10,524 nucleotides of DNA. Origin: a virus. Its lineage: Duplodnaviria; Heunggongvirae; Uroviricota; Caudoviricetes. Shown piece by piece: positions 1-10,524 of this stretch. Position 1 is the stretch's first letter, and every line of letters begins with the position of its first letter. The stretch lies in the IMG/VR virus record IMGVR_UViG_2541047695_000006; one strand, written 5' to 3'. The translations under genes and the position numbers were made by a program. Under the pieces are notes generated by a model. The model was not told the DNA's origin and made no database searches. It worked only from the letters and a program-made list of their open reading frames with translations.

Positions 1-1242
1 ATGGCACGAAAAACCACCCCACTAACTATTACGGAGATCAAAAACGCACGACCAGGGGAAAAGGAATATACCCTGCAGGATGGCGGAGGATTATTTCTTC
101 TGGTGAAGCCCTCCGGATCAAAAATCTGGCGTTTTACGTACTACCGTCCGGCAGATAAAAAACGGACTATTATCAGCCTTGGATCGCTAAATGATGTTTC
201 CCTGTCTGATGCCAGAGAGCGACGGAATGAATACAGGTCACTCATAGCAAAGGGAACTGACCCACAGGACTACGAACGCCGGAAACGTGAAGCAGAGAGC
301 AGGAAAAAGGGCAACACGTTCGAAAAAGTTGCCTTGGACTGGTACGAGATGAAAAAAGGCCAGAATCTGGCTTACAACACGATTAAGGATATCTGGCGAT
401 CCCTGGAAAAATACGTATTCCCGTACATCGGAAACACGCCAATAGATACCCTCACCGCTCGCCGCTTTGTTGAGATACTCACACCCATTAAAGCACGCGG
501 CAACCTGGAAACTCTGAAACGCGTTTTACAACGCATCAATGAAGTGATGGATTTTGCTGCCAACAGTGGGCTGATTGACATCAACACCGCCGCGAACGTC
601 CGCAAGGCATTCCCTTCCCCCACTAAAAAGCATATGCCAACCATCCGACCGGAACAGCTACCGCAGCTAATGCACGATTTATCGGTCGCCAGCATAGAAC
701 GGCAAACCAGATTGCTAATCGAGTGGCAACTGCTGACCGTAGCACGCCCAGCCGAAGCAGCCGCCGCACGCTGGGAAGAAATAGATCTCGATGCCGAAAC
801 ATGGACGATTCCAGCCGGACGCATGAAGATGCGCCGTGACCATGTGATCCCTCTTTGCGGTCAGGCGATGGCTGTACTGGAAACAATGAAGCCAATCAGC
901 GCACACAGGGAACATGTTTTTCCCAGCCTTAAAAATCCAATGCTGCCAATGAGCAGCCAGACCGCTAACGCTGCATTGCGCCGGATGGGATACGCTGGTG
1001 TGCTGGTGTCTCACGGATTACGCGCCATATTCAGTACAGCAGCGAACGAGGAAGGATTCGAGCCGGACGTAATCGAGGCCGCACTCGCACACGTGGACAC
1101 GAACGAGGTAAGGCGAGCATATAACCGAAGTAACTACCTGGAAAAACGTGTAGTACTTATGCGCTGGTGGGGTGAATTTGTGGAAGCCGCAGCAACCGGA
1201 GTGACCATAGCCAGTGGTAAAAGGGGTATCCGTGCGGTGTAA
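1..1242 (+). CDS. int: Tyrosine recombinase / site-specific integrase, P4-like family
   Basis: 413-aa ORF. N-terminal arm-binding-type domain (LTITEIKNARPGEKEYTLQDGGGLFLLVKPSGSKIWRFTY), C-terminal catalytic region with HGLRAIFST and a Tyr in RRAYNRSNY. The ATG sits exactly at the window start, so the upstream RBS is not visible. Confidence 0.9.
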   Translation: MARKTTPLTITEIKNARPGEKEYTLQDGGGLFLLVKPSGSKIWRFTYYRPADKKRTIISLGSLNDVSLSDARERRNEYRSLIAKGTDPQDYERRKREAESRKKGNTFEKVALDWYEMKKGQNLAYNTIKDIWRSLEKYVFPYIGNTPIDTLTARRFVEILTPIKARGNLETLKRVLQRINEVMDFAANSGLIDINTAANVRKAFPSPTKKHMPTIRPEQLPQLMHDLSVASIERQTRLLIEWQLLTVARPAEAAAARWEEIDLDAETWTIPAGRMKMRRDHVIPLCGQAMAVLETMKPISAHREHVFPSLKNPMLPMSSQTANAALRRMGYAGVLVSHGLRAIFSTAANEEGFEPDVIEAALAHVDTNEVRRAYNRSNYLEKRVVLMRWWGEFVEAAATGVTIASGKRGIRAV

Positions 1243-1767: not shown

Positions 1768-1974
1768 ATGGAAGTAATCAGAAAAATTCTTACCCGTCAG
1801 GAAGTAAAAAATATTCTGCGCATCAAGGCAGACAGTTCGCTACAGGACATGATCAACGCCGGAAAATTCCCGAAAGGCTTCAAAATCGGTCTGCGCCGTG
1901 TTGGCTGGTATGAAGATGAGGTGCAGGCCTGGTTGAAAGAACGCGAGGAAGAAGCGCGCGGAACGGCTGCGTAA
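1768..1974 (+). CDS. alpA: AlpA-family phage transcriptional regulator (HTH, excisionase-like)
   Basis: 68-aa ORF with the AlpA-type motif LTRQEVKNILRIKADSSLQDMINAGKFPKGFKIGLRRVGWYEDEVQAWL. GAGGT RBS about 9 nt upstream. Confidence 0.85.
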   Translation: MEVIRKILTRQEVKNILRIKADSSLQDMINAGKFPKGFKIGLRRVGWYEDEVQAWLKEREEEARGTAA

Positions 1975-2232
1975 TGGTGTGAGGTGTAACGCAATGAACA
2001 TAACAAAAAGCGCCCCGTTGCCGGAGCGCCCTTGTGAACAATTAACCTGCTGCGAAAAAAATGGATCAGTGCAGGGGAATTATATCAACTGTGTGAAGAA
2101 GCGCCACTATTGCCGGATAACAGGCAAAGAAAAGGCCACCAGTCACGGTAGCCCTGCGACACAAATTTCGCGTTATCCCCAACGCATGAGCATCGCCAAC
2201 AATGCCACATTTGCGGCTGGTGGGCAATGCAA

Positions 2233-2421
2233 TCAGTCTGGTTCAGTTCGTTGCCATACCTGCAATGAGCGCTTTTCCCTGTACTCTTTAAGGAATTGCT
2301 CAAGGGCAAAAGCACATGGCGCGAATCTTTCTGATTCATGCTCTATCTTTCTGCGCCGTCTTTTCCGTGCCGGTGATAATGTTTTGGTCAATTCTTTATC
2401 GGTCATTGTGTTGTCCTGCAT
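2233..2421 (-). CDS. Hypothetical small basic protein, possibly co-transcribed with the RHH gene
   Basis: 62-aa ORF in the track, immediately downstream (minus strand) of the RHH ORF. No domain recognised and RBS is weak. Confidence 0.2.
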   Translation of the reverse strand: MQDNTMTDKELTKTLSPARKRRRRKIEHESERFAPCAFALEQFLKEYREKRSLQVWQRTEPD

Positions 2422-2463
2422 AGCAATGCGCCGTAATACCTTACACCACGGCGCTGATGGTGA

Positions 2464-2643
2464 TTACTCTGGTTCTTTGGCCTTGCGCCGCTGGCGATAT
2501 TCAACTTCTCGTTTTAATGCCGCAGTAACAAATTGCCCCGTACTTTCGCCAGGCATTTTTACCGCCTCAACATTGTTCATAACTTCATGCGGAACCCTTG
2601 CCGCAACGGTTTGTGATTTTGCGTTTACCGCTTTTGTCGCCAT
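2464..2643 (-). CDS. Small ribbon-helix-helix-like DNA-binding protein (59 aa), candidate repressor; not in the ORF track because it is under 60 aa
   Basis: Translated by hand: MATKAVNAKSQTVAARVPHEVMNNVEAVKMPGESTGQFVTAALKREVEYRQRRKAKEPE. GAGGGG RBS 8 nt upstream. Divergent from the rightward operon and directly facing three palindromic operators. Confidence 0.5.
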   Translation of the reverse strand: MATKAVNAKSQTVAARVPHEVMNNVEAVKMPGESTGQFVTAALKREVEYRQRRKAKEPE

Positions 2644-2693
2644 GTGGTGTACCCCTCATAAAAAACAAATGCAGTATGCAGGAAAAAAAATAA

Positions 2694-2745
2694 GTGTTCA
2701 ACACTTGACGTGTTTAACACCTGGGTTTAAATTGGTGTTCAACAC
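2694..2745. promoter_or_regulatory. Divergent promoter/operator region with three 11-bp palindromes GTGTT(C/T)AACAC
   Basis: Palindromes at 2694-2704, 2710-2720 and 2735-2745. A sigma70-like -35 TTGACG (2705-2710) and -10 TTAAAT (2728-2733) with 17-bp spacer point rightward and are interleaved with the palindromes. Confidence 0.5.
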
Positions 2746-2842
2746 CTTGTTGGCGCAAGGTGCAGAAACGACGAAACCCGGCAGTGCGCTAACACTAACC
2801 GGGCTTCTAACCACCAACGATAGCGAAAGTATCGAGGTAGCT

Positions 2843-3049
2843 ATGAGAAATCATACCACACACCCGCAAGGGCGGGACTCGCACAACCTGAATAAATACA
2901 TCTGGCGTTTTATCGCCCTGAGCACGGCACAACCGCGCGTGATTACCATTGAGGCCACCAGCGAACAGGAAGCGCGTCAGCAATCTCCTGATGGCTGCGT
3001 GATGGTATTCGCTGCCCGTATTCGCCAGGGGGAAACCTATGCACAATAA
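2843..3049 (+). CDS. Small protein (68 aa), first gene of the rightward operon; tentatively Icd-like
   Basis: In-frame C-terminal part of the 1979..3049 ORF, preceded by GAGGT RBS. Sequence MRNHTTHPQGRDSHNLNKYIWRFIALSTAQPRVITIEATSEQEARQQ... The family call is from memory and tentative. Confidence 0.55.
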   Translation: MRNHTTHPQGRDSHNLNKYIWRFIALSTAQPRVITIEATSEQEARQQSPDGCVMVFAARIRQGETYAQ

Positions 3050-3275
3050 AACCACACCGGACGCAGCCGCCGAAGCCATCAAAACGCTGATGCACGCGCT
3101 GATTGATATTTCTGTTATCGCAGACAAGGCGCATAAGCGCGCCACCAGCGAAACAGAATATGCCGGGGCTTTCGTTCCTCACTCACTGGCTGTTATGCAA
3201 CTTAGTGCTGATATGGCGCTGAATGAAGCAGGCAAAATTCTTACCGCAGATATTCAAGGGGCGCACCATGCATGA
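3039..3275 (+). CDS. Hypothetical protein (78 aa)
   Basis: ORF in the track. GGGGGA RBS; start overlaps the upstream stop (translational coupling). Confidence 0.5.
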   Translation: MHNKTTPDAAAEAIKTLMHALIDISVIADKAHKRATSETEYAGAFVPHSLAVMQLSADMALNEAGKILTADIQGAHHA

Positions 3276-3495
3276 TGACCGTTATTTTAAATCAATGAGC
3301 CATGCAGAAAACGCACTGACTAACAGTGAATGTTTGAGGCAAATATTTCTTATCTGGCTTGATGGTTTAAGTGATGCGCCGGAAGATGAGCGTGAGTCTA
3401 ATCTTGCTGGTGCGTTTATTTCATTACTCGATACGGTAATCGTCGAATTAAATAAAGCGATCGAAATTCACGATAAAAAAATAAACGCGGAATAA
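3268..3495 (+). CDS. Hypothetical protein (75 aa; track ORF begins at 3223)
   Basis: In-frame ATG at 3268 has an AAGGGG RBS at 7-nt spacing and overlaps the upstream stop. Confidence 0.45.
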   Translation: MHDDRYFKSMSHAENALTNSECLRQIFLIWLDGLSDAPEDERESNLAGAFISLLDTVIVELNKAIEIHDKKINAE

Positions 3496-3500
3496 AAACC

Positions 3501-3788
3501 ATGAAACAGAAAATTTCTGGCTTTACTGCCAGCGGCCCCGCTCGGCCTGAAATCCGCCCCGGCGATATTTTCCGGGATAACTATGGCGGCACGGTAACGA
3601 TAAAAGGCGTGGCAGAACGGCGCATCACTTACCGCCGTGATGGCTACGAATATGACTGCGTGATGCCTGTTTATCAGTTCCGGCGTGATTTCACGCTGGT
3701 GGGCCATCGTAAAGCCGTAAATCAGAAACGTGCAGCAAGTCATATCCGCAAAATTCGTGAAATGCTGGTCGCAGGGGGTAAAAAATGA
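3501..3788 (+). CDS. Hypothetical protein (95 aa)
   Basis: ORF in the track. Its stop overlaps the rep start in an ATGA arrangement. Confidence 0.5.
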   Translation: MKQKISGFTASGPARPEIRPGDIFRDNYGGTVTIKGVAERRITYRRDGYEYDCVMPVYQFRRDFTLVGHRKAVNQKRAASHIRKIREMLVAGGKK

Positions 3789-5191
3789 AACTGGCACCGA
3801 ACGTAAAACTGTTACCGAAAGATAAACACACTGAGGCGGTTATTTTTGCGGGTGATAATGCTCACTCCTTTGCAGAACATTACATGATTGCACAGGCCAA
3901 AAAAGCAGGCGATCCCATCCCTCCGGTTTACCTGGGCCGTTATCAGTTAAGCGAACTGGACAACCTGCAGATTGTTGATGAGGGGCGATACAGGGTAACG
4001 GTGATACGCGCCGGAAATATTGACGAAGCGCAGCTGTTAACCATAGCGACAAAACTGGCGATCGCCGGAGTCCAGGAAGCGCGGCTGCTTTCTGAAAACT
4101 TCGAATTACTGGAGAAATGGACCGACCAGCTTCCACGGCTACGGGAGACATGGGAGAGAGGGGAAAGCCTGATCATGAACGGAGGAAAACAAAAAATCAC
4201 GCTACCGATTTCATGGGGTTCTGAGGGATTCGACGCGCAGCAAAGCTACGTAATTAAGGGGCTTATTCCGGCTGAATCATTATGCAGCACCTACGGGGCC
4301 AGCGGTTCTTATAAATCGTTCCTGGCTATTTCCTGGTCGTGCCATGTTGCCACAGGTATGGCATGGGGAGGCCGCAGGGTAAGTAAGGGCGCGGTTATCT
4401 ATATCGCTGGCGAAGGCAGTATGGGCGTAAAACGCCGCGTTAAGGCGTGGGAGATAACCCACGACAAGGTGGTTACGGATTTGTGCATCGTTAACGCGCC
4501 TGTCTTCCCTGCATCGCCTGACTATGTGGAGCAGGTTATCAGGACCGCCGGATTAGTGCAGGACAGAACGGGCGAAAGGGTGCGGATGATTGTCATTGAC
4601 ACGCTGGCCCGTTGCTTTGGTGGTCATGATGAAAATGACTCCCGCGACATGGGGGCGTTTATCCAGGGGTGTGACGCGATAAAGCAGGCCACGGGGGCCA
4701 CGGTTCTGGTTGTGCATCATTCCGGCAAGGATGAGACGAAAGGGGCGCGGGGTTCCAGTGCATTCCGTGCGGCGCTTGATGCTGAGTTCCGAATCAGTCG
4801 GGAACATTCAGAGGCTACGGCGCTGGTTGCAGCATGTACGAAGATGAAGGACGCGGAGGAGCCAAAAGAAAGCGCCTACGACCTTAAGAGCGTGGAGGTA
4901 TTTACGGATCCTGAGGGTGAAGAAATCGTGTCCATGGTGGTGATTGACGTTCCCCGCGCCCCTGCTGAACTGGAGCGCATAGAGGAGGCCGGGAACAAGA
5001 CGGAAAATCACACGGCTTTATGGGGTTGTATCCGGTCACGTATACAGCATGGTGATAAATGCACGATCCCGCTGCTACGTGATGACATGAAAAAGCTGGG
5101 ATATGACACAAAACACCTTAAACGATGGTTAGCCAAACTGGAAAAAGACGGCGTGATTTGCGTCGATGGGGATGATGTTCACCCACTGTAA
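3785..5191 (+). CDS. Replication initiator / helicase-like protein (RecA/DnaB-like ATPase, PICI pri-rep-like)
   Basis: 468-aa ORF with a P-loop-like GASGSYKS, a Walker-B-like MIVIDTLARCF and VLVVHHSGKDETKGARGSSAF. AGGGGGT RBS. Directly followed by an iteron array. Confidence 0.8.
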   Translation: MKLAPNVKLLPKDKHTEAVIFAGDNAHSFAEHYMIAQAKKAGDPIPPVYLGRYQLSELDNLQIVDEGRYRVTVIRAGNIDEAQLLTIATKLAIAGVQEARLLSENFELLEKWTDQLPRLRETWERGESLIMNGGKQKITLPISWGSEGFDAQQSYVIKGLIPAESLCSTYGASGSYKSFLAISWSCHVATGMAWGGRRVSKGAVIYIAGEGSMGVKRRVKAWEITHDKVVTDLCIVNAPVFPASPDYVEQVIRTAGLVQDRTGERVRMIVIDTLARCFGGHDENDSRDMGAFIQGCDAIKQATGATVLVVHHSGKDETKGARGSSAFRAALDAEFRISREHSEATALVAACTKMKDAEEPKESAYDLKSVEVFTDPEGEEIVSMVVIDVPRAPAELERIEEAGNKTENHTALWGCIRSRIQHGDKCTIPLLRDDMKKLGYDTKHLKRWLAKLEKDGVICVDGDDVHPL

Positions 5192-5390
5192 AAAGTGGGC
5201 GTTAAAAGTGGGAATAGTGGGTAATTTAACTGGAATTTAACAAAATCGCCCACTTTCCCACGTGTATACATCCCAAAAAGTGGGCACTAAAAAAATTCTT
5301 ATGAAACAGTACGATATAAAACCACAAAATCCCAGGTGGGACGAAGTGGGAAACCATGAAAAGTGGGTAGAAAAAGTGGGCACAGGTGGG
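5182..5390. repeat. Iteron array, putative replication origin (consensus about AAAGTGGG)
   Basis: Twelve copies of the GTGGG core: nine forward (5195, 5208, 5217, 5280, 5336, 5346, 5363, 5376, 5386) and three reverse (5182, 5249, 5257). They flank an A/T-rich spacer holding a direct repeat AATTTAAC x2. Confidence 0.7.
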
Positions 5391-5393
5391 CGC

Positions 5394-5645
5394 ATGACCA
5401 GAAAAACCAGAGATAAGACAGCACCAAAATATCGCGCATTAGACATGACAGAGCACGCCTTAAAGGTGGCAATCAGAACGATAGACCGCCACGCCGGAGA
5501 AGGATACGCGAAAGCACATCCCGAACTGATAAGCGCATTCATGACCACGACGGCGGCAAATTTTGCCACGCTGACAGAGCGGGAGATTGCCGAAGCGGAA
5601 CAGGTAACAACAATCAACGTTAAAACCGGAGAGGTGGAATCATGA
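5394..5645 (+). CDS. Hypothetical protein (83 aa; track ORF 5262..5645 probably over-extended into the iterons)
   Basis: In-frame ATG at 5394 with an AGGTGG RBS. Stop overlaps the ssb start (ATGA). Confidence 0.45.
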   Translation: MTRKTRDKTAPKYRALDMTEHALKVAIRTIDRHAGEGYAKAHPELISAFMTTTAANFATLTEREIAEAEQVTTINVKTGEVES

Positions 5646-6064
5646 CAGCACAGATAGCGGCTTACGGGCGGCTGGTGGCTGACCCGCAGTTAAAGACCAC
5701 TAGCAAAGGGACACAAATGGCGATGGCGAGTATGGCGGTTCCCCTGCCGTGCAGCCAGGCAGATGACGGAACGGCGACGATGTGGTTATCTGTCCTGGCG
5801 TTTGGCAGACAGGCCGACGCACTGGCAAAACACCACAAAGGCGAACTCCTGAGCGTGGCGGGTAACATGCAGGTGAGCCAGTGGACAGGCCAGAACGGCA
5901 AAACGCGGCAGGGCTGGCAGGTTATCGCAGATAGTGTAATCAGTGCCAGAACGGCGCGACCGGGCGGCAAAAAAGGTCAACAGGGCCAGGCCACTGACGC
6001 ATTGAACAGGGCAAAACAACAGTCAGGGAATGATGAACCGTACGGCGATAATATACCGTTTTAA
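5642..6064 (+). CDS. ssb: Single-stranded DNA-binding protein (SSB) homologue
   Basis: 140-aa ORF. OB-fold-like segments align by eye with E. coli SSB (LVADPQL; WLSVLAFGRQADALAKHHKGELLSVAGNMQVSQWTGQNGKTRQGWQV), and it has the acidic C-terminal tip ending DNIPF (compare DDDIPF). Confidence 0.75.
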   Translation: MTAQIAAYGRLVADPQLKTTSKGTQMAMASMAVPLPCSQADDGTATMWLSVLAFGRQADALAKHHKGELLSVAGNMQVSQWTGQNGKTRQGWQVIADSVISARTARPGGKKGQQGQATDALNRAKQQSGNDEPYGDNIPF

Positions 6065-6280: not shown

Positions 6281-7321
6281 ATGGTTGATTTATATTCGCC
6301 TACACAGCTTGTGCAGGTGGCTAATGCTGAAGATGTGCAAAAAAAACTAAATGCGTTGTTTACCAGTTTGTTTTTCACTCGCTCGGTAATGTTTGAATCG
6401 AGAGACATTATTCTTGATACGATCGACGATCCAAATATCCCGATCGCGGCGTTTTGCTCTCCTATGGTGGGCAGTAAAGTTTCACGAGATGAGGGATACG
6501 AATCAAAAACAATTCGCCCAGGCTATATGAAACCGAAAAGCAGTATTGATCCAAATAAGTTAGCTGTGCGCCCTGCTGGTGTATCACCTGAACAATACAA
6601 TGCTTTTGGAGCGCGTAATATTAAAGTTAAACAGGCGATTGTAAATCAGGCTAAAGCTATACGTGCACGTATTGAATGGCTTGCTGTTCAGGCAATCACA
6701 ACGGGGAAAAATATCATTGAGGGCGATGGTATTGAACGTTATGAACTGGACTGGAATATAAAACCACAAAATATTATCACGCAGTCTGGCGGTGCTGAGT
6801 GGTCAGGTAAGGATAAAGAAACTTTTGATCCAAATGATGATATTGAGAGCTACGCAGAATTTAGTGAGGGCGTCACTAATATCATCATTATGGGCGGTAA
6901 TGTATGGAAGAAATACCGTTCATTCAGAGCGATAAAAGAGGCTCTGGATACCCGTCGTGGTTCTAATTCCGAACTGGAAACGGCCCTTAAAGACCTTGGT
7001 GATTCGGTGAGTTTTAAAGGGTATATGGGCGATGTTGCGATTGTTGTTTACAGCGGACGTTATACCGACGAGGACGGAACTGAAAAACATTTCCTTGATC
7101 CTGATTTGATGGTGCTTGGCAATACGGCTCTTCAGGGGATTGTCGCCTATGGCGGTATTCAGGATCCGGAGCTAATCCGAATGGGGCTGACTAAAGCCGA
7201 ACTTGCACCGAAAAACTATATTGTGCCTGGTGATCCGGCTATTGAGTACATACAAACGCACTCTGCACCACAGCCAATACCGGCCCGCATCAATCGTTTT
7301 GTTACCGTTCGCATTGGCTAA
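6281..7321 (+). CDS. Major capsid protein, lambda gpE-like family
   Basis: Collinear similarity to lambda gpE, for example NIITQSGGAEWSGKDKETFDPNDDIESYA and DTRRGSNSELETALKDLGDSVSFKGYMGDVAIVVYSGRY. AGAGG RBS at 6-nt spacing. An alternative start at 6275 (MSM...) matches the lambda N-terminus. Confidence 0.9.
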   Translation: MVDLYSPTQLVQVANAEDVQKKLNALFTSLFFTRSVMFESRDIILDTIDDPNIPIAAFCSPMVGSKVSRDEGYESKTIRPGYMKPKSSIDPNKLAVRPAGVSPEQYNAFGARNIKVKQAIVNQAKAIRARIEWLAVQAITTGKNIIEGDGIERYELDWNIKPQNIITQSGGAEWSGKDKETFDPNDDIESYAEFSEGVTNIIIMGGNVWKKYRSFRAIKEALDTRRGSNSELETALKDLGDSVSFKGYMGDVAIVVYSGRYTDEDGTEKHFLDPDLMVLGNTALQGIVAYGGIQDPELIRMGLTKAELAPKNYIVPGDPAIEYIQTHSAPQPIPARINRFVTVRIG

Positions 7322-7330
7322 GGGGGAGCA

Positions 7331-7672
7331 ATGGCTACTCATTACACTGAACTCATGTCTGGTACTGAAGCACTGGTTACTACGCTGGGGATATTTTCAG
7401 CCAATAAAGGGGTAATACCTGCGTTTACGCCACTGATGCAGGAAGATGCAACTGGTGCGCTAGTGGTATGGGATGGAACGAGCGCAGGCAAAGCGGTTTA
7501 TGTTTCCGCTGTACAAATCGACACAGCGAAAAAAACACAGGCACAGGTTTATAAGACAGGTGTTTTAAATGTTGATGCTCTGAACTGGCCTGAGTCTGTA
7601 AGAGAACTGTCGGCAAAGGTTGCCGCGTTTGTTGGCTCAGGTATTTCTGTTCAGCCGCTGGCTCGTGTGTAA
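7331..7672 (+). CDS. Head decoration protein, lambda gpD-like
   Basis: 113-aa ORF with gpD-like motifs PAFTPLM, VVWDGT, YKTGxxxxDALNWPE and AFVGSGISV. GGGGGAG RBS. Confidence 0.8.
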   Translation: MATHYTELMSGTEALVTTLGIFSANKGVIPAFTPLMQEDATGALVVWDGTSAGKAVYVSAVQIDTAKKTQAQVYKTGVLNVDALNWPESVRELSAKVAAFVGSGISVQPLARV

Positions 7673-7683
7673 AGGGGGATACA

Positions 7684-8067
7684 ATGCAGAATCATTACAA
7701 TGACCTTAAGCCAATTGCCGAAATGATGTATCCGGATCCAGCAGTAGAGGAATTAAAGGCTATTGCTGACAAAATGCGTTTAAGTGAACGCCTTGTTGAT
7801 ATGAATCAGGTGATGGAACTTACTACCCTTAGCCGTCGCACATTGCTAAACCTTGAGGCTCGTGGAGAGTTCCCCGAACGCGTACAGGTTACGGAAGGGC
7901 GTAAGGCCTGGTATTTAAGTGAAGTGATCGACTGGATAAACAATATTCCTCGAGCTTCTGAATATTGCCGCGTACCTGTCCCCAAAAAGCCAGATGCGGC
8001 GCTATGCCTCAAGATTGAGCGTGTACGTCGCAATGCACGGGATGGTCGCTATAAGTTGATTGGTTGA
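7684..8067 (+). CDS. AlpA/MerR-like HTH DNA-binding protein (127 aa) immediately upstream of cos
   Basis: HTH segment LTTLSRRTLLNLEARGEFPERVQVTEGRKAWYLSEVIDWINN. AGGGGGA RBS. About 40 N-terminal residues have no recognisable signature. Confidence 0.65.
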   Translation: MQNHYNDLKPIAEMMYPDPAVEELKAIADKMRLSERLVDMNQVMELTTLSRRTLLNLEARGEFPERVQVTEGRKAWYLSEVIDWINNIPRASEYCRVPVPKKPDAALCLKIERVRRNARDGRYKLIG

Positions 8068-8120
8068 TGAAATTAGGGCCCGTTCTGGCTGGCGGGTCCT
8101 TTCCGGCGATCCGGCAGGCT

Positions 8121-8241
8121 ACGGGGCGGCGACCTTGCGGATTTTCGCTATTTATGAGCCTTTTCGGGTTGGTGGTGGTGGTTTTGTTTTTCGCTCTATC
8201 TCTATGAATAAAAAGGGAAAGATAACACCAACACACCAACC
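8121..8241 (+). other. Lambda-like cohesive end site: cosN (12-nt cohesive-end sequence at 8124-8135) plus cosB-like repeats
   Basis: GGGCGGCGACCT at 8124-8135 and the following about 35 nt closely match the lambda left-end sequence as recalled. Downstream are GGTTGGTGGTGGTGG (8167-8181), an A/T-rich tract, and a tandem ACACCAAC x2 (8225-8240) in inverted orientation, ending about 30 bp before the Nu1-like start. Confidence 0.7.
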
Positions 8242-8268
8242 TGAAACCTTAACTAAGTGGGGATATTG

Positions 8269-8811
8269 ATGAAATCGCACCTGATGAACAAAAAAACTAT
8301 GGCGCAAAGCTGCCGCGTAAGTGCGACAGCGTTCGACAAGTGGGGAGTAACTCCCGTTGAGCGTAAAGGCCGTGAGGCGTTTTATGATGTTGCTAGCGTG
8401 ATAGACAATAGGGTTAACAATGCAATTAACCAGCTTACAAACGACAAAGGCGAGATTGATGATGATGAACTTTTACGCGTAAGAATCAGATTAATGACGG
8501 CCCAGGCGGAAGCGCAGGAACTTAAAAACGAGCGCGAACGCGGCGAGGTGATTGATACAAAGTTTTGCATCTACGCGATTTCAAAACTAGCGAGTCAGAT
8601 TTCATCAATCATGGACAGCCTCCCGCTCACAATGCAAAGGCGCTTTCCCGATATAAGGCCGTATATGCTGGATGAACTAAAAAGGGAAATAGCCAAAGCA
8701 TGTAACGCATGTGCAAGACTTGACGAAAACCTGCCACAGATACTGGCTGATTACCTGATGGAAACTACCGGAAACGCGCCTGAGAAGTTGCTACAGAACA
8801 AAGGCGAGTAA
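8269..8811 (+). CDS. Terminase small subunit, lambda Nu1-like
   Basis: About 180 aa, collinear with lambda Nu1: N-terminal winged-HTH region (NKK...FYDVASVI) and TAQAEAQELKNERERGEVIDTKFCIYAISKLASQISSIMDSLPLTMQRRFPD. The start at 8269 has a GGGGA RBS; the track ORF begins at an upstream GTG (8257). Confidence 0.85.
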   Translation: MKSHLMNKKTMAQSCRVSATAFDKWGVTPVERKGREAFYDVASVIDNRVNNAINQLTNDKGEIDDDELLRVRIRLMTAQAEAQELKNERERGEVIDTKFCIYAISKLASQISSIMDSLPLTMQRRFPDIRPYMLDELKREIAKACNACARLDENLPQILADYLMETTGNAPEKLLQNKGE

Positions 8812-8884
8812 CCGCCGCCCCGTAACGGGCCATAATTCCAGGAAGGACCCGACGACACCAGGCTATCGGAACGATGAGGGCACA

Positions 8885-9166
8885 ATGACTGAAGCCGAAC
8901 TACTGGGATTAATCCGCCGCGTCGTCGGAATCAGCCAGCAGCATGACGAACAGGCCACACAGCCGGACAGCGTGACCGCTGAAAATTATGTGCGTGTTGT
9001 TGCTGAGGTGATGCGCCGTGATGGTATTGAGCTTAACGGCGTGGATATGCGCAACATACGAACAAGAGTCCTTGAGTTGCTGGCATACCGTCGCCGTTCT
9101 CAACAACGGAGGGAGAGCGCGAAAAATACTTACCAGTGGAAGAAGCCGGAACGGTTGCGGCGGTAG
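8885..9166 (+). CDS. Hypothetical protein (93 aa) downstream of terS; not a large-terminase homologue
   Basis: ORF with a GAGGG RBS at 6-nt spacing. No similarity to lambda gpA recognised. Confidence 0.45.
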   Translation: MTEAELLGLIRRVVGISQQHDEQATQPDSVTAENYVRVVAEVMRRDGIELNGVDMRNIRTRVLELLAYRRRSQQRRESAKNTYQWKKPERLRR

Positions 9167-9573
9167 ATTCCTGATATTCAGGAAAACCACGAATCTGTGG
9201 GGTTTACTGGCGCGGTTACGGCGGTGACACGCACCGAGGCAGAACAATTACCGTAGGTTAAAGCGACAGTATTCACACCAAAGGCAGAAATTAGCGGTTA
9301 ACGTAACTGACTGATATTTTCGGGAACAGCCAACGGCTGAGGCCGGAGCTATAAAAATAGCTTTGGGTACAGTCCTCAGTTTTGAGGGATGTTAACCAAC
9401 TGAATAATAAGCAAACCTCAAAATTGAGTTTTGTATCTGCCTGAGTTATTTCTGTGCTAACTTGCTGATATTCCCGATAACGTAAAATTGCGTTGGCTGG
9501 CAGAGTGCAAATTTGCACGATGGCCTAACCCATTGATTGTTTCGGAAACCTCAATTTGAGGAGGCCGGACAGC

Positions 9574-9608
9574 GTGACGGAGGGTGACAACCAGTGACAC
9601 GCCGTGAC
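9574..9608 (+). repeat. Four direct GTGAC repeats at exact 10-bp periodicity
   Basis: GTGAC at 9574, 9584, 9594 and 9604. The 9-mer GTGACACGC also occurs at 9224-9232 and 9594-9602. Confidence 0.55.
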
Positions 9609-10062
9609 AAAAAGACGGTTTAACCATCCATTAAAAATCGACGTGATTTTGTGCTTTCCGTATGAGGTGGCCAGCGTCATTTTTTAGTGAGAAATTCTGG
9701 TCAGGGGCGTTGGCTGAATGGTTATTTTATCGTGCCCATGCACAGGGAGGGGGCGGGTAAAATCTCTGGAGGTGATGCCTGTCAGGACCGCCGCCTGACC
9801 CTTCCTCACATCGCCGCAGGTTCGAAAACTTTTTTTGTGTCAGGTGCGCACGGAATTGATAGGTAAAACCTATATTAAAAAATCACGGAAGCCGCGCCAT
9901 TGCTGGATCAGTCAAAAATTCCACATCTCACGGCAGGCAAAAAAAGCGAATTTTGGGCCAGTTGAGGATAAAAAAGGGCTCACTAGTTTTGCACATCCTG
10001 GTATCGGGGTCGTCAGCCTCCCGCCAGTAACCAGGTAACTAATCACGCTGGTGGGCATGATG

Positions 10063-10090
10063 CCGATGCCGGGATCTCGGTATCGGTTTA
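10063..10090 (+). terminator. Candidate hairpin / weak terminator
   Basis: CCGATGCCG-ggatct-CGGTATCGG (one G-T pair) followed by the T-rich TTTATCTG. Confidence 0.25.
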
Positions 10091-10280
10091 TCTGTGATCA
10101 TCCACCAGCTTGATGACAGATAACAGGGAGTCATAACGATTAAAATTGTATATTTTTGCAGCAAACATTTTTAGCTACACGCTAAGCTATACGATTTTGA
10201 GTTTAAATTTTTTGTATTCAATTAAATCAAATGGTTATATGCACGTTTTGAATACTCTCGTGGACCAAAAATCCCAAGAA

Positions 10281-10307
10281 AACCAACCTATTGCGGTTGG
10301 TTTTTTT
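10281..10307 (+). terminator. Rho-independent terminator, strongest in plus orientation and possibly bidirectional
   Basis: AACCAACC-tattgc-GGTTGGTT followed by T7. Lies about 60 nt beyond the stop of the minus-strand edge ORF. Confidence 0.5.
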
Positions 10308-10368
10308 ATATCTGCATTTAATTCGATAAACAGACAGCGACACATCACGGCCTGTTTATTTTCTGTTA

Positions 10369-10524
10369 TCAGAACGTCCAGACTACACCCGCCTGAGTTG
10401 TGCTGCTTTCTTCACGGGAGAAACGGCTGTCGATACCAAGCGTTAGCCCCGTCAATGTTTGCTCAAAGCCAGCGCCTGCATCAGTGGTCACGTTGTTGCG
10501 GCTGTTAATTGCCGAACTCCACAT
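10369..10524 (-). CDS. Short minus-strand ORF at the window edge (51 codons from an ATG at 10522-10524; may be the C-terminus of a longer gene starting outside the window)
   Basis: Translated by hand: MWSSAINSRNNVTTDAGAGFEQTLTGLTLGIDSRFSREESSTTQAGVVWTF, stop at 10369-10371. Under 60 aa so absent from the track. Function unknown. Confidence 0.3.
   Translation of the reverse strand: MWSSAINSRNNVTTDAGAGFEQTLTGLTLGIDSRFSREESSTTQAGVVWTF

Follow-up and report, generated by a model that had tools for sequence, protein, structure and literature searches.

PICIs are major gene-transfer vehicles in E. coli and related pathogens. The described systems closest to the locus analyzed here are EcCICFT073, the prototype of the Gram-negative cos-type PICIs, and EcCIEDL933 (CP-933C), the prototype of the capsid-forming PICIs (cf-PICIs), and helper induction with high-frequency transfer has been shown only for these two (PMC6092414; 10.1101/2022.09.08.507074). 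EcCICFT073-type PICIs are packaged by lambda and phi80 (PMC6092414, PMC6739421). Near cos, islands of this family can encode a small Rpp protein (RppA, RppB or RppC; 139-154 aa, combining a winged HTH and a coiled coil). Rpp redirects the helper TerS; the islands that carry it cannot transfer without it, and it blocks lambda (PMC6739421). EcCIEDL933 has capsid, protease and portal genes besides a complete TerS-TerL-HNH set of the HK97/P27 type, and needs only tails from its helper (10.1101/2022.09.08.507074).

We analyzed a 10,524-nt stretch of DNA, the whole of which is called the window below, and identified it as an EcCICFT073-type PICI, a phage satellite, integrated at the tRNA-Pro gene proL (Table 1). 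Comparison of the occupied site with the empty site of K-12 indicated that the left boundary of the island is the 3' end of proL and its right boundary a partial proL copy, giving about 10.5 kb between the att copies; 3' of attR follow the proL-yejO spacer and the chromosomal gene yejO. Since the attR copy is located in the window, the right side of this ~10.5 kb integrative island lies fully inside it. The genes by which PICIs are recognized (P4-type Int, AlpA, AAA_25 Rep and SSB) were all present and the size agrees with the norm of about 10-15 kb for EcCICFT073-like PICIs; no portal, tail or lysis genes were found in the island. An identical right half lies between tRNA-Pro proL and yejO in E. 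coli NCTC10444 (L001), whose island at this same site encodes right-half proteins 98-100% identical to those of the window. The replication gene of the NCTC10444 island (9065-10885 in L001) is a different, primase-type gene as compared to the AAA_25 Rep of the window, suggesting modular exchange of the replication module. The lambda-E-like capsid and lambda-D-like decoration proteins of the window (6281-7672) are encoded without a portal, protease or scaffold gene; neither transfer nor interference reportedly needs their CFT073 orthologues, c1499 and c1500 (PMC6092414). We also noted a 356-aa GTG ORF (1979-3049) that matches no family and is odd in composition. The region that it overlaps is annotated with small genes by RefSeq in the sister island (YlcI/YnfO-like on the minus strand, and Icd-like), and the ORF is probably spurious.

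Table 1. Features of the proL island, with positions in the window unless another locus is named.
Feature	Position	Strand	Basis or remark
P4-type integrase	1-1242	+	ORF listing and Pfam
AlpA	1768-1974	+	ORF listing and Pfam
DUF4222 protein	3501-3788	+	ORF listing and profile search
AAA_25 replication protein (Rep)	3785-5191	+	ORF listing and Pfam
SSB	5642-6064	+	ORF listing and Pfam
Major capsid protein, lambda-E-like	about 6281-7321	+	ORF listing and profile search
Decoration protein, lambda-D-like	7331-7672	+	ORF listing and profile search
Second AlpA-like HTH protein	7684-8067	+	ORF listing and profile search
cosN, lambda-identical, GGGCGGCGACCT	8124-8135	+	Nicking site for helper lambda-type TerL; exact match
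TerS, Nu1-type, full-length, island-encoded	8269-8811	+	Pfam Phage_Nu1; lambdoid alignments
cos2 region	8813-8851 (window); 38298-38340 (L003, CFT073); 7027-7065 and 7925-7967 (L019 and L027)		
Leader of the 93-aa gene, including RBS GAGGG (8876-8880)	8813-8884	+	Conserved
93-aa gene, c1505 orthologue (phrog_1561)	8885-9166	+	Last cistron of the rightward late/packaging operon (likely)
Right-arm DNA, ~1.1 kb, no annotated gene	9167-10254	.	Blocks common to other islands
attR core, copy of the tRNA-Pro proL 3' end, CTCTCGTGGACCAAA	10255-10269	+	Right boundary of the island

The packaging genes of the island were then compared with those of the described systems. Profile searches detected no TerL domain in any ORF of the window, and no ORF combined ATPase and nuclease domains with a length of at least about 400 aa; the TerL of another locus (L028), used as the positive control, was readily detected. 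Only four open stretches of at least 250 aa occur in the window, namely Int, Rep, the capsid protein and one frame without a family match, and no unassigned open stretch in the window was long enough for a TerL. There is also no TerL further right in the element, because the window contains attR, beyond which comes chromosomal yejO, and RefSeq annotates no gene between the 93-aa ORF and yejO. This absence is as expected, as satellites of the EcCICFT073 class use the TerL of the helper phage. The island does carry a TerS gene. Its 180-aa product matched Pfam Phage_Nu1 at 9e-24 and was 35-36% identical to the TerS of lambdoid prophages when aligned end to end, including the C-terminal region, and this full-length alignment makes it plausible that the protein is able to recruit a lambda-type TerL. 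The cosN site, for which 0.03 chance matches were expected, ends 133 nt before terS, and a cosN upstream of the packaging gene is the layout of lambda and of EcCICFT073 as well (PMC6092414, PMC9026076). The island is not of the Rpp type, its cos-proximal gene encoding a Nu1 homologue with no similarity to RppA of CFT073 detectable by BLAST.

The first 39 positions of the leader that follows terS were recognized as the remnant of an inverted second cos (cos2), which is degenerate in the window (AACCGCCGCCCC); most related islands have an intact reverse-complement cosN at this position. Inverted cos copies thus flank the terS or rpp gene on both sides, and this may be why the gene is exchanged as a cassette. 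The interval from cosN to terS contains, where cosB would lie, a long imperfect inverted repeat (8161-8247, GGTTGGTGGTGGTGG...CCAACACACCAACC), which may be a binding region for the island's own TerS. In an Rfam scan of 7600-10524 the only matches were miRNA-like and below threshold; they fell on both strands and picked up this hairpin near cos.

An earlier note on this DNA had described an ORF with a good ribosome-binding site at the position of the 93-aa gene, a Nu1-type TerS gene upstream of it, non-coding DNA after it and the lack of a TerL gene, and each of these descriptions was borne out by our analysis. Its view that the TerS is the island's own and that the TerL has to come from a helper is likewise supported by inference from the cosN site, the full-length Nu1 homologue, the lack of TerL and the EcCICFT073-type architecture, so that such a dependence would be expected from the sequence. 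The doubts that the same note attached to its proposal, a gene that is not conserved or a TerL just beyond the window, do not apply, since the gene is conserved and the element ends at attR.

The 93-aa gene is an ATG ORF of 93 codons with the GAGGG located 5 nt 5' of the start codon. Among 47 distinct ungapped alleles the mean dN/dS was 0.22, and the variable sites were distributed over the codon positions with 60 at the third position as against 31 and 28 at the first and second. These two values indicate a protein-coding gene under purifying selection. Start, stop and length were conserved across the 47 alleles. The gap between terS and the ORF in the window is 73 nt, and a consensus scan of its plus strand found no sigma-70-like promoter and no terminator-like site. 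Since neither element lies between the two genes and the gaps are as short as 13-17 nt elsewhere, terS and the 93-aa gene are probably co-transcribed. Judged from this spacing and the consensus scan, the gene is likely to be the last cistron of the late operon.

A search of protein families with the product matched phrog_1561 over positions 1-93 of 93 (E=1.2e-56). Pfam, NCBIfam and PADLOC profile searches with the ORF gave no match. The family comprised more than 1000 clusters at 90% identity, all of them enterobacterial and named 'hypothetical' or 'prophage protein', and of 5426 complete E. coli genomes, 1467 matched a query made of terS and the ORF. When 1.84 billion representative proteins were searched exhaustively with HMMER, 41 matches were returned; nearly all were enterobacterial fragments of the same family, and that set therefore held no distant annotated relatives. 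The most distant copies (from Citrobacter, Salmonella and a Klebsiella record) were 38-58% identical, a search seeded with the divergent Citrobacter copy retrieved only 9 proteins, and a scan of genome contigs for the gene found a single locus. By these searches phrog_1561 is a narrow family. The sole match in the phage collection was the Klebsiella 'phage' P12620-1. In this 106-kb record (L089, PQ569648.1), positions 2143-5233 hold a TerL gene, an unannotated short homologue of the 93-aa gene and a P4-type integrase gene in succession, an island-like junction of the kind that a PICI, and not a phage, would be expected to have; DNA of a satellite or of the host may thus be part of the record.

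To place the gene in its genomic context, we compared 82 related loci drawn from IMG/VR, CFT073, EDL933 and Shigella. The 93-aa gene was the last gene of the rightward operon in all 82, as it is the last gene in the window. Its upstream neighbour varied. A Nu1-like TerS gene preceded it in 47 loci, at gaps of 17-257 nt, and RppA in 12; another 12 had a 553-aa TerL of the HK97/P27 type, with TerL_ATPase and TerL_nuclease domains, at gaps of only 13-14 nt. The neighbour was c1501, followed by ~660 nt without a recognized gene, in 7 loci and SSB in 2. The TerL-bearing loci are cf-PICIs, because portal, HNH and P27-type TerS genes are also present. Several loci sit within the late regions of lambdoid prophages, for which helper-embedded PICIs are a published parallel (PMC10111431). 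The two loci with SSB as the neighbour are minimal islands from IMG/VR (L015 and L020) that keep the 93-aa gene and have no recognizable capsid, decoration or terS/rpp gene; in L015 the 93-aa gene comes directly after int-alpA-pri-ssb, and in L020 about 2.8 kb separate it from ssb.

Allelic variation was also compared with the identity of the upstream gene. The most variable stretch of the protein is residues 71-75, where SQQRR occurred with TerS and with RppA, and VEMYR with TerS, RppA, the TerL of cf-PICIs and others. Alleles were thus shuffled across the partner classes and did not co-vary with the upstream gene; CFT073 and EDL933 share an att site and an allele type and have different packaging modules. 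The constant last position, the varied partners and the shuffled alleles together indicate that the gene lies outside the exchangeable cos-terS/rpp cassette and is no substitute for TerL. The earlier note had called it an orphan standing where a large terminase would be expected. The first is wrong, given the full-length phrog_1561 match, the number of clusters and the frequency in E. coli genomes, and the second is a coincidence of position, as cf-PICIs carry the gene 13-14 nt after a complete TerL gene.

The homologue in EcCICFT073 is c1505 (WP_000133413.1; 38374-38652 in the CFT073 locus, L003), which is 78% identical to the ORF over all 93 residues. The right half of the CFT073 island encodes the capsid protein (c1499), the decoration protein (c1500) and proteins of 137, 144 and 93 aa, and mapping of the published primers on CFT073 identified the 144-aa gene as c1503 (rppA) and the 93-aa gene as c1505. 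Like the ORF of the window, c1505 is terminal, follows a cos-proximal packaging gene and has the same conserved 70-bp leader; conservation between the two DNAs runs from ~70 bp 5' of the ATG to ~15 bp past the stop codon. The surroundings differ in that c1505 follows the 144-aa rppA gene after a gap of ~280 nt with an intact inverted cos2, whereas the ORF of the window follows terS after its shorter gap with a degenerate cos2, and in the att site, which is roxA/phoQ in CFT073 and proL in the window. In EcCIEDL933 the 93-aa homologue (WP_000133425.1) shows 81% identity by tblastn, starts 13 nt after terL and has no further gene between it and attR. It is highly probable, taking identity and context together, that the 93-aa ORF is the conserved terminal gene of an E. 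coli/enterobacterial PICI family and the orthologue of c1505.

The orthologue has been part of published experiments. Fillol-Salom et al. (2019) cloned c1499 to c1507 singly in pBAD18 and found that only c1503 (rppA) reduced lambda plaquing, pBAD18-c1505 being without effect (PMC6739421). By primer mapping, the c1505 amplicon covers 38317-38690 of L003 and contains the whole gene in the sense orientation. The 'wild type' of the transfer assays was EcCICFT073 c1504-07::cat, which was mobilized by lambda and phi80 (PMC6739421). Its arms mapped to 38044-38094 and 39032-39061 in L003, so that the deletion, from 38095 to 39031, removes the 93-aa gene and most of the right arm. The inactive clone and the mobilized deletion island together indicate that the gene is no strong inhibitor of lambda, and the latter that induction, packaging, transfer and establishment can proceed without it under the conditions of the assay. 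These dispensability assays cover lambda and phi80 in K-12 and the orthologous allele rather than that of the window, and the part of the text of PMC6739421 available to us holds no quantitative comparison of transfer with and without the gene. In the PICI papers that we consulted the 93-aa gene appeared in strain and primer tables only, and we found no mention of it in their main text, nor any phenotype for it in cf-PICIs. We considered whether it could be the 'hypothetical gene 1792' of a cf-PICI preprint, mutation of which severely cut transfer, and rejected this. With the locus tags calibrated from two papers (EDL933_RS08680 = EDL933_1785 and EDL933_RS09140 = EDL933_1877), 1792 should be the head-closure gene and the EDL933 copy of the 93-aa gene about EDL933_1798, assignments that come from the calibration and not from the original annotation; the severe phenotype would therefore not apply to the 93-aa gene.

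The product is an 11-kDa protein with a pI of 10.5. AlphaFold2 modeled three helices with a mean pLDDT of 75 (88-92 over residues 31-70), from an alignment that was shallow at 30 sequences, mostly more than 85% identical. In the model the N-terminal helix (3-13) is weak, the linker after it is disordered and the hairpin (H28-45 and H52-82) is predicted with confidence; no HTH or Xis-like fold was predicted. Residues 68-93 form a basic tail with 11 K+R as against 2 D+E, ending in YxWKKPERLRR. Y83, W85 and P88 did not vary, and the basic residues on either side hardly did, even in the copies of 38-58% identity. We take the tail, RRRSQQRRESAKNTYQWK, to recall loosely the arginine-rich RNA-binding motif of lambda N, RRRERRAEKQAQWK, including the Trp after the arginine run, a likeness that has no statistical support; the motif is C-terminal in the 93-aa protein as against N-terminal in lambda N, and no boxB-like partner came to light. 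Searching PDB sequences with the basic tail by itself gave no match, and searching them with the whole protein gave only a chance-level one (E=1.1). Foldseek found nothing below E=0.5 for the model in PDB or BFVD. A possible peptide mimicry was also considered and rejected: in a six-frame search of six loci, lambdoid prophage sequence included, the pattern W[KR][KRT]P[EDK][RK] was found only in the gene itself.

The explanation that we favor overall, with moderate confidence, is that the gene encodes a conserved, dispensable late accessory protein of enterobacterial PICIs that acts by binding nucleic acid or by docking. The gene is placed last, directly after whatever packaging genes an island carries, and would be expressed late on a transcript presumably shared with terS. 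The helical hairpin (28-82) and the arginine-rich tail of its product would bind nucleic acid or would dock through the C-terminal peptide, a biochemical mode of action that we put forward tentatively. In every enterobacterial PICI lineage the protein would serve as an accessory or regulatory factor that is not essential and does not depend on the terminase system, and it would not be a specific adaptor between island TerS and helper TerL. Conservation this strong fits poorly with the word 'dispensable'. It could be, unlikely as we consider it, that the protein is a universal late PICI factor whose YxWKKPERLRR tail binds a specific RNA or DNA element, or a protein of the helper or host, and controls a step common to all the lineages. 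If so, antitermination or stability of late transcripts, protection or processing of concatemers and establishment in the recipient would be candidate steps, and the lambda and phi80 assays in K-12 would have missed the function.

Another explanation is a right-arm or recombination factor, that is, a small DNA-binding protein acting near attP/attR, for example at the palindrome CCTCAATTTGAGG, and modulating integration, excision or circularization. The position of the gene agrees with such a role, as it is always nearest attR and in the excised circle would lie just 5' of attP and int on the same strand. Its allele type tracks the att site and not the packaging module in CFT073 and EDL933, and the tail is strongly basic. 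The palindrome itself (9549-9561) is invariant; of the 51 loci with enough flanking sequence, 40 have it 112-378 nt 3' of the gene, and its orientation never changes. However, c1504-07::cat lacks both the gene and most of the right arm and still gave transductants, which need excision and integration; AlpA and Int are already known to be essential for induction and transfer (PMC6092414), and the predicted structure is neither HTH nor Xis-like. We therefore regard a recombination factor as rather improbable. The palindrome is a candidate protein-binding site in the right arm in any case. Repeats of the TAGCTAYAC type, including a 26-nt direct repeat, were also seen near both island ends (10168-10193 in the window; 5436-5500 in L001) and are probably arm-type integrase binding sites. 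The right-arm DNA as a whole is a mosaic, with the blocks 9312-9347, 9458-9499, 9525-9569, 9573-9725 and 9785-10122 common to islands at other att sites.

The earlier note had proposed an adaptor or inhibitor at the TerS/TerL interface, which would couple the island TerS to the helper TerL or block the helper terminase. Cloned c1505 was without effect on lambda plaquing, only c1503 being active (PMC6739421), and the c1504-07 deletion island was mobilized by lambda and phi80 all the same. The partners of the gene range from lambda-type TerS through Rpp to the unrelated HK97/P27-type TerS, TerL and HNH set, or to no packaging gene at all, and its alleles do not co-vary with them. It does lie directly after terS, or after terL in cf-PICIs, with which it is probably co-transcribed, and small proteins directed at terminase are known from satellites, Rpp being an example (PMC6739421). 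The 93-aa protein is like Rpp in being a small protein encoded near cos in the same island family, but it has no sequence similarity to Rpp, or to any PDB chain, and no predicted winged HTH, and c1505 neither blocks lambda nor is needed for transfer. An adaptor or inhibitor is thus not supported and appears improbable, and a terminase modulator for helpers other than lambda and phi80 also has a low probability.

We rate equally low the probability of an accessory protein directed at the host or at competitors, which would act in defense, anti-defense or interference with phages other than lambda and phi80. Immunity genes are thought to reside in the flanks of the packaging operons of PICIs (10.1101/2025.02.11.637232), an accessory role would agree with dispensability for transfer, and the single clones were, according to the part of the text of PMC6739421 available to us, assayed for interference against lambda only. 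Defense cargo is usually variable, however, whereas this gene is nearly invariant across the lineages sampled; it had no PADLOC match, and its coupling to terminase genes at 13-17 nt points to the island's own cycle. That there is no functional gene, the open frame being a by-product of conserved DNA such as cos2 or an attP arm, is hardly credible, for although the leader overlaps the inverted cos remnant and 30 of the 47 alleles have an open antisense frame of 85 aa or more, the low dN/dS and the third-position excess belong to the plus frame, start, stop and length are kept behind a good ribosome-binding site, and the protein motifs persist in the most distant copies.

The window documents a sub-type of EcCICFT073-like PICI in which a complete Nu1-type TerS stands in place of Rpp, and this bears on the exchange of packaging specificity as a cos-flanked cassette. 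The late accessory protein that we favor is encoded by one of the few genes carried by every lineage sampled, whether Rpp-type, TerS-type, capsid-forming, prophage-embedded or minimal. The 93-aa gene is thus a core gene rather than an orphan in the slot of TerL, and the question becomes which function is common to all these satellites.
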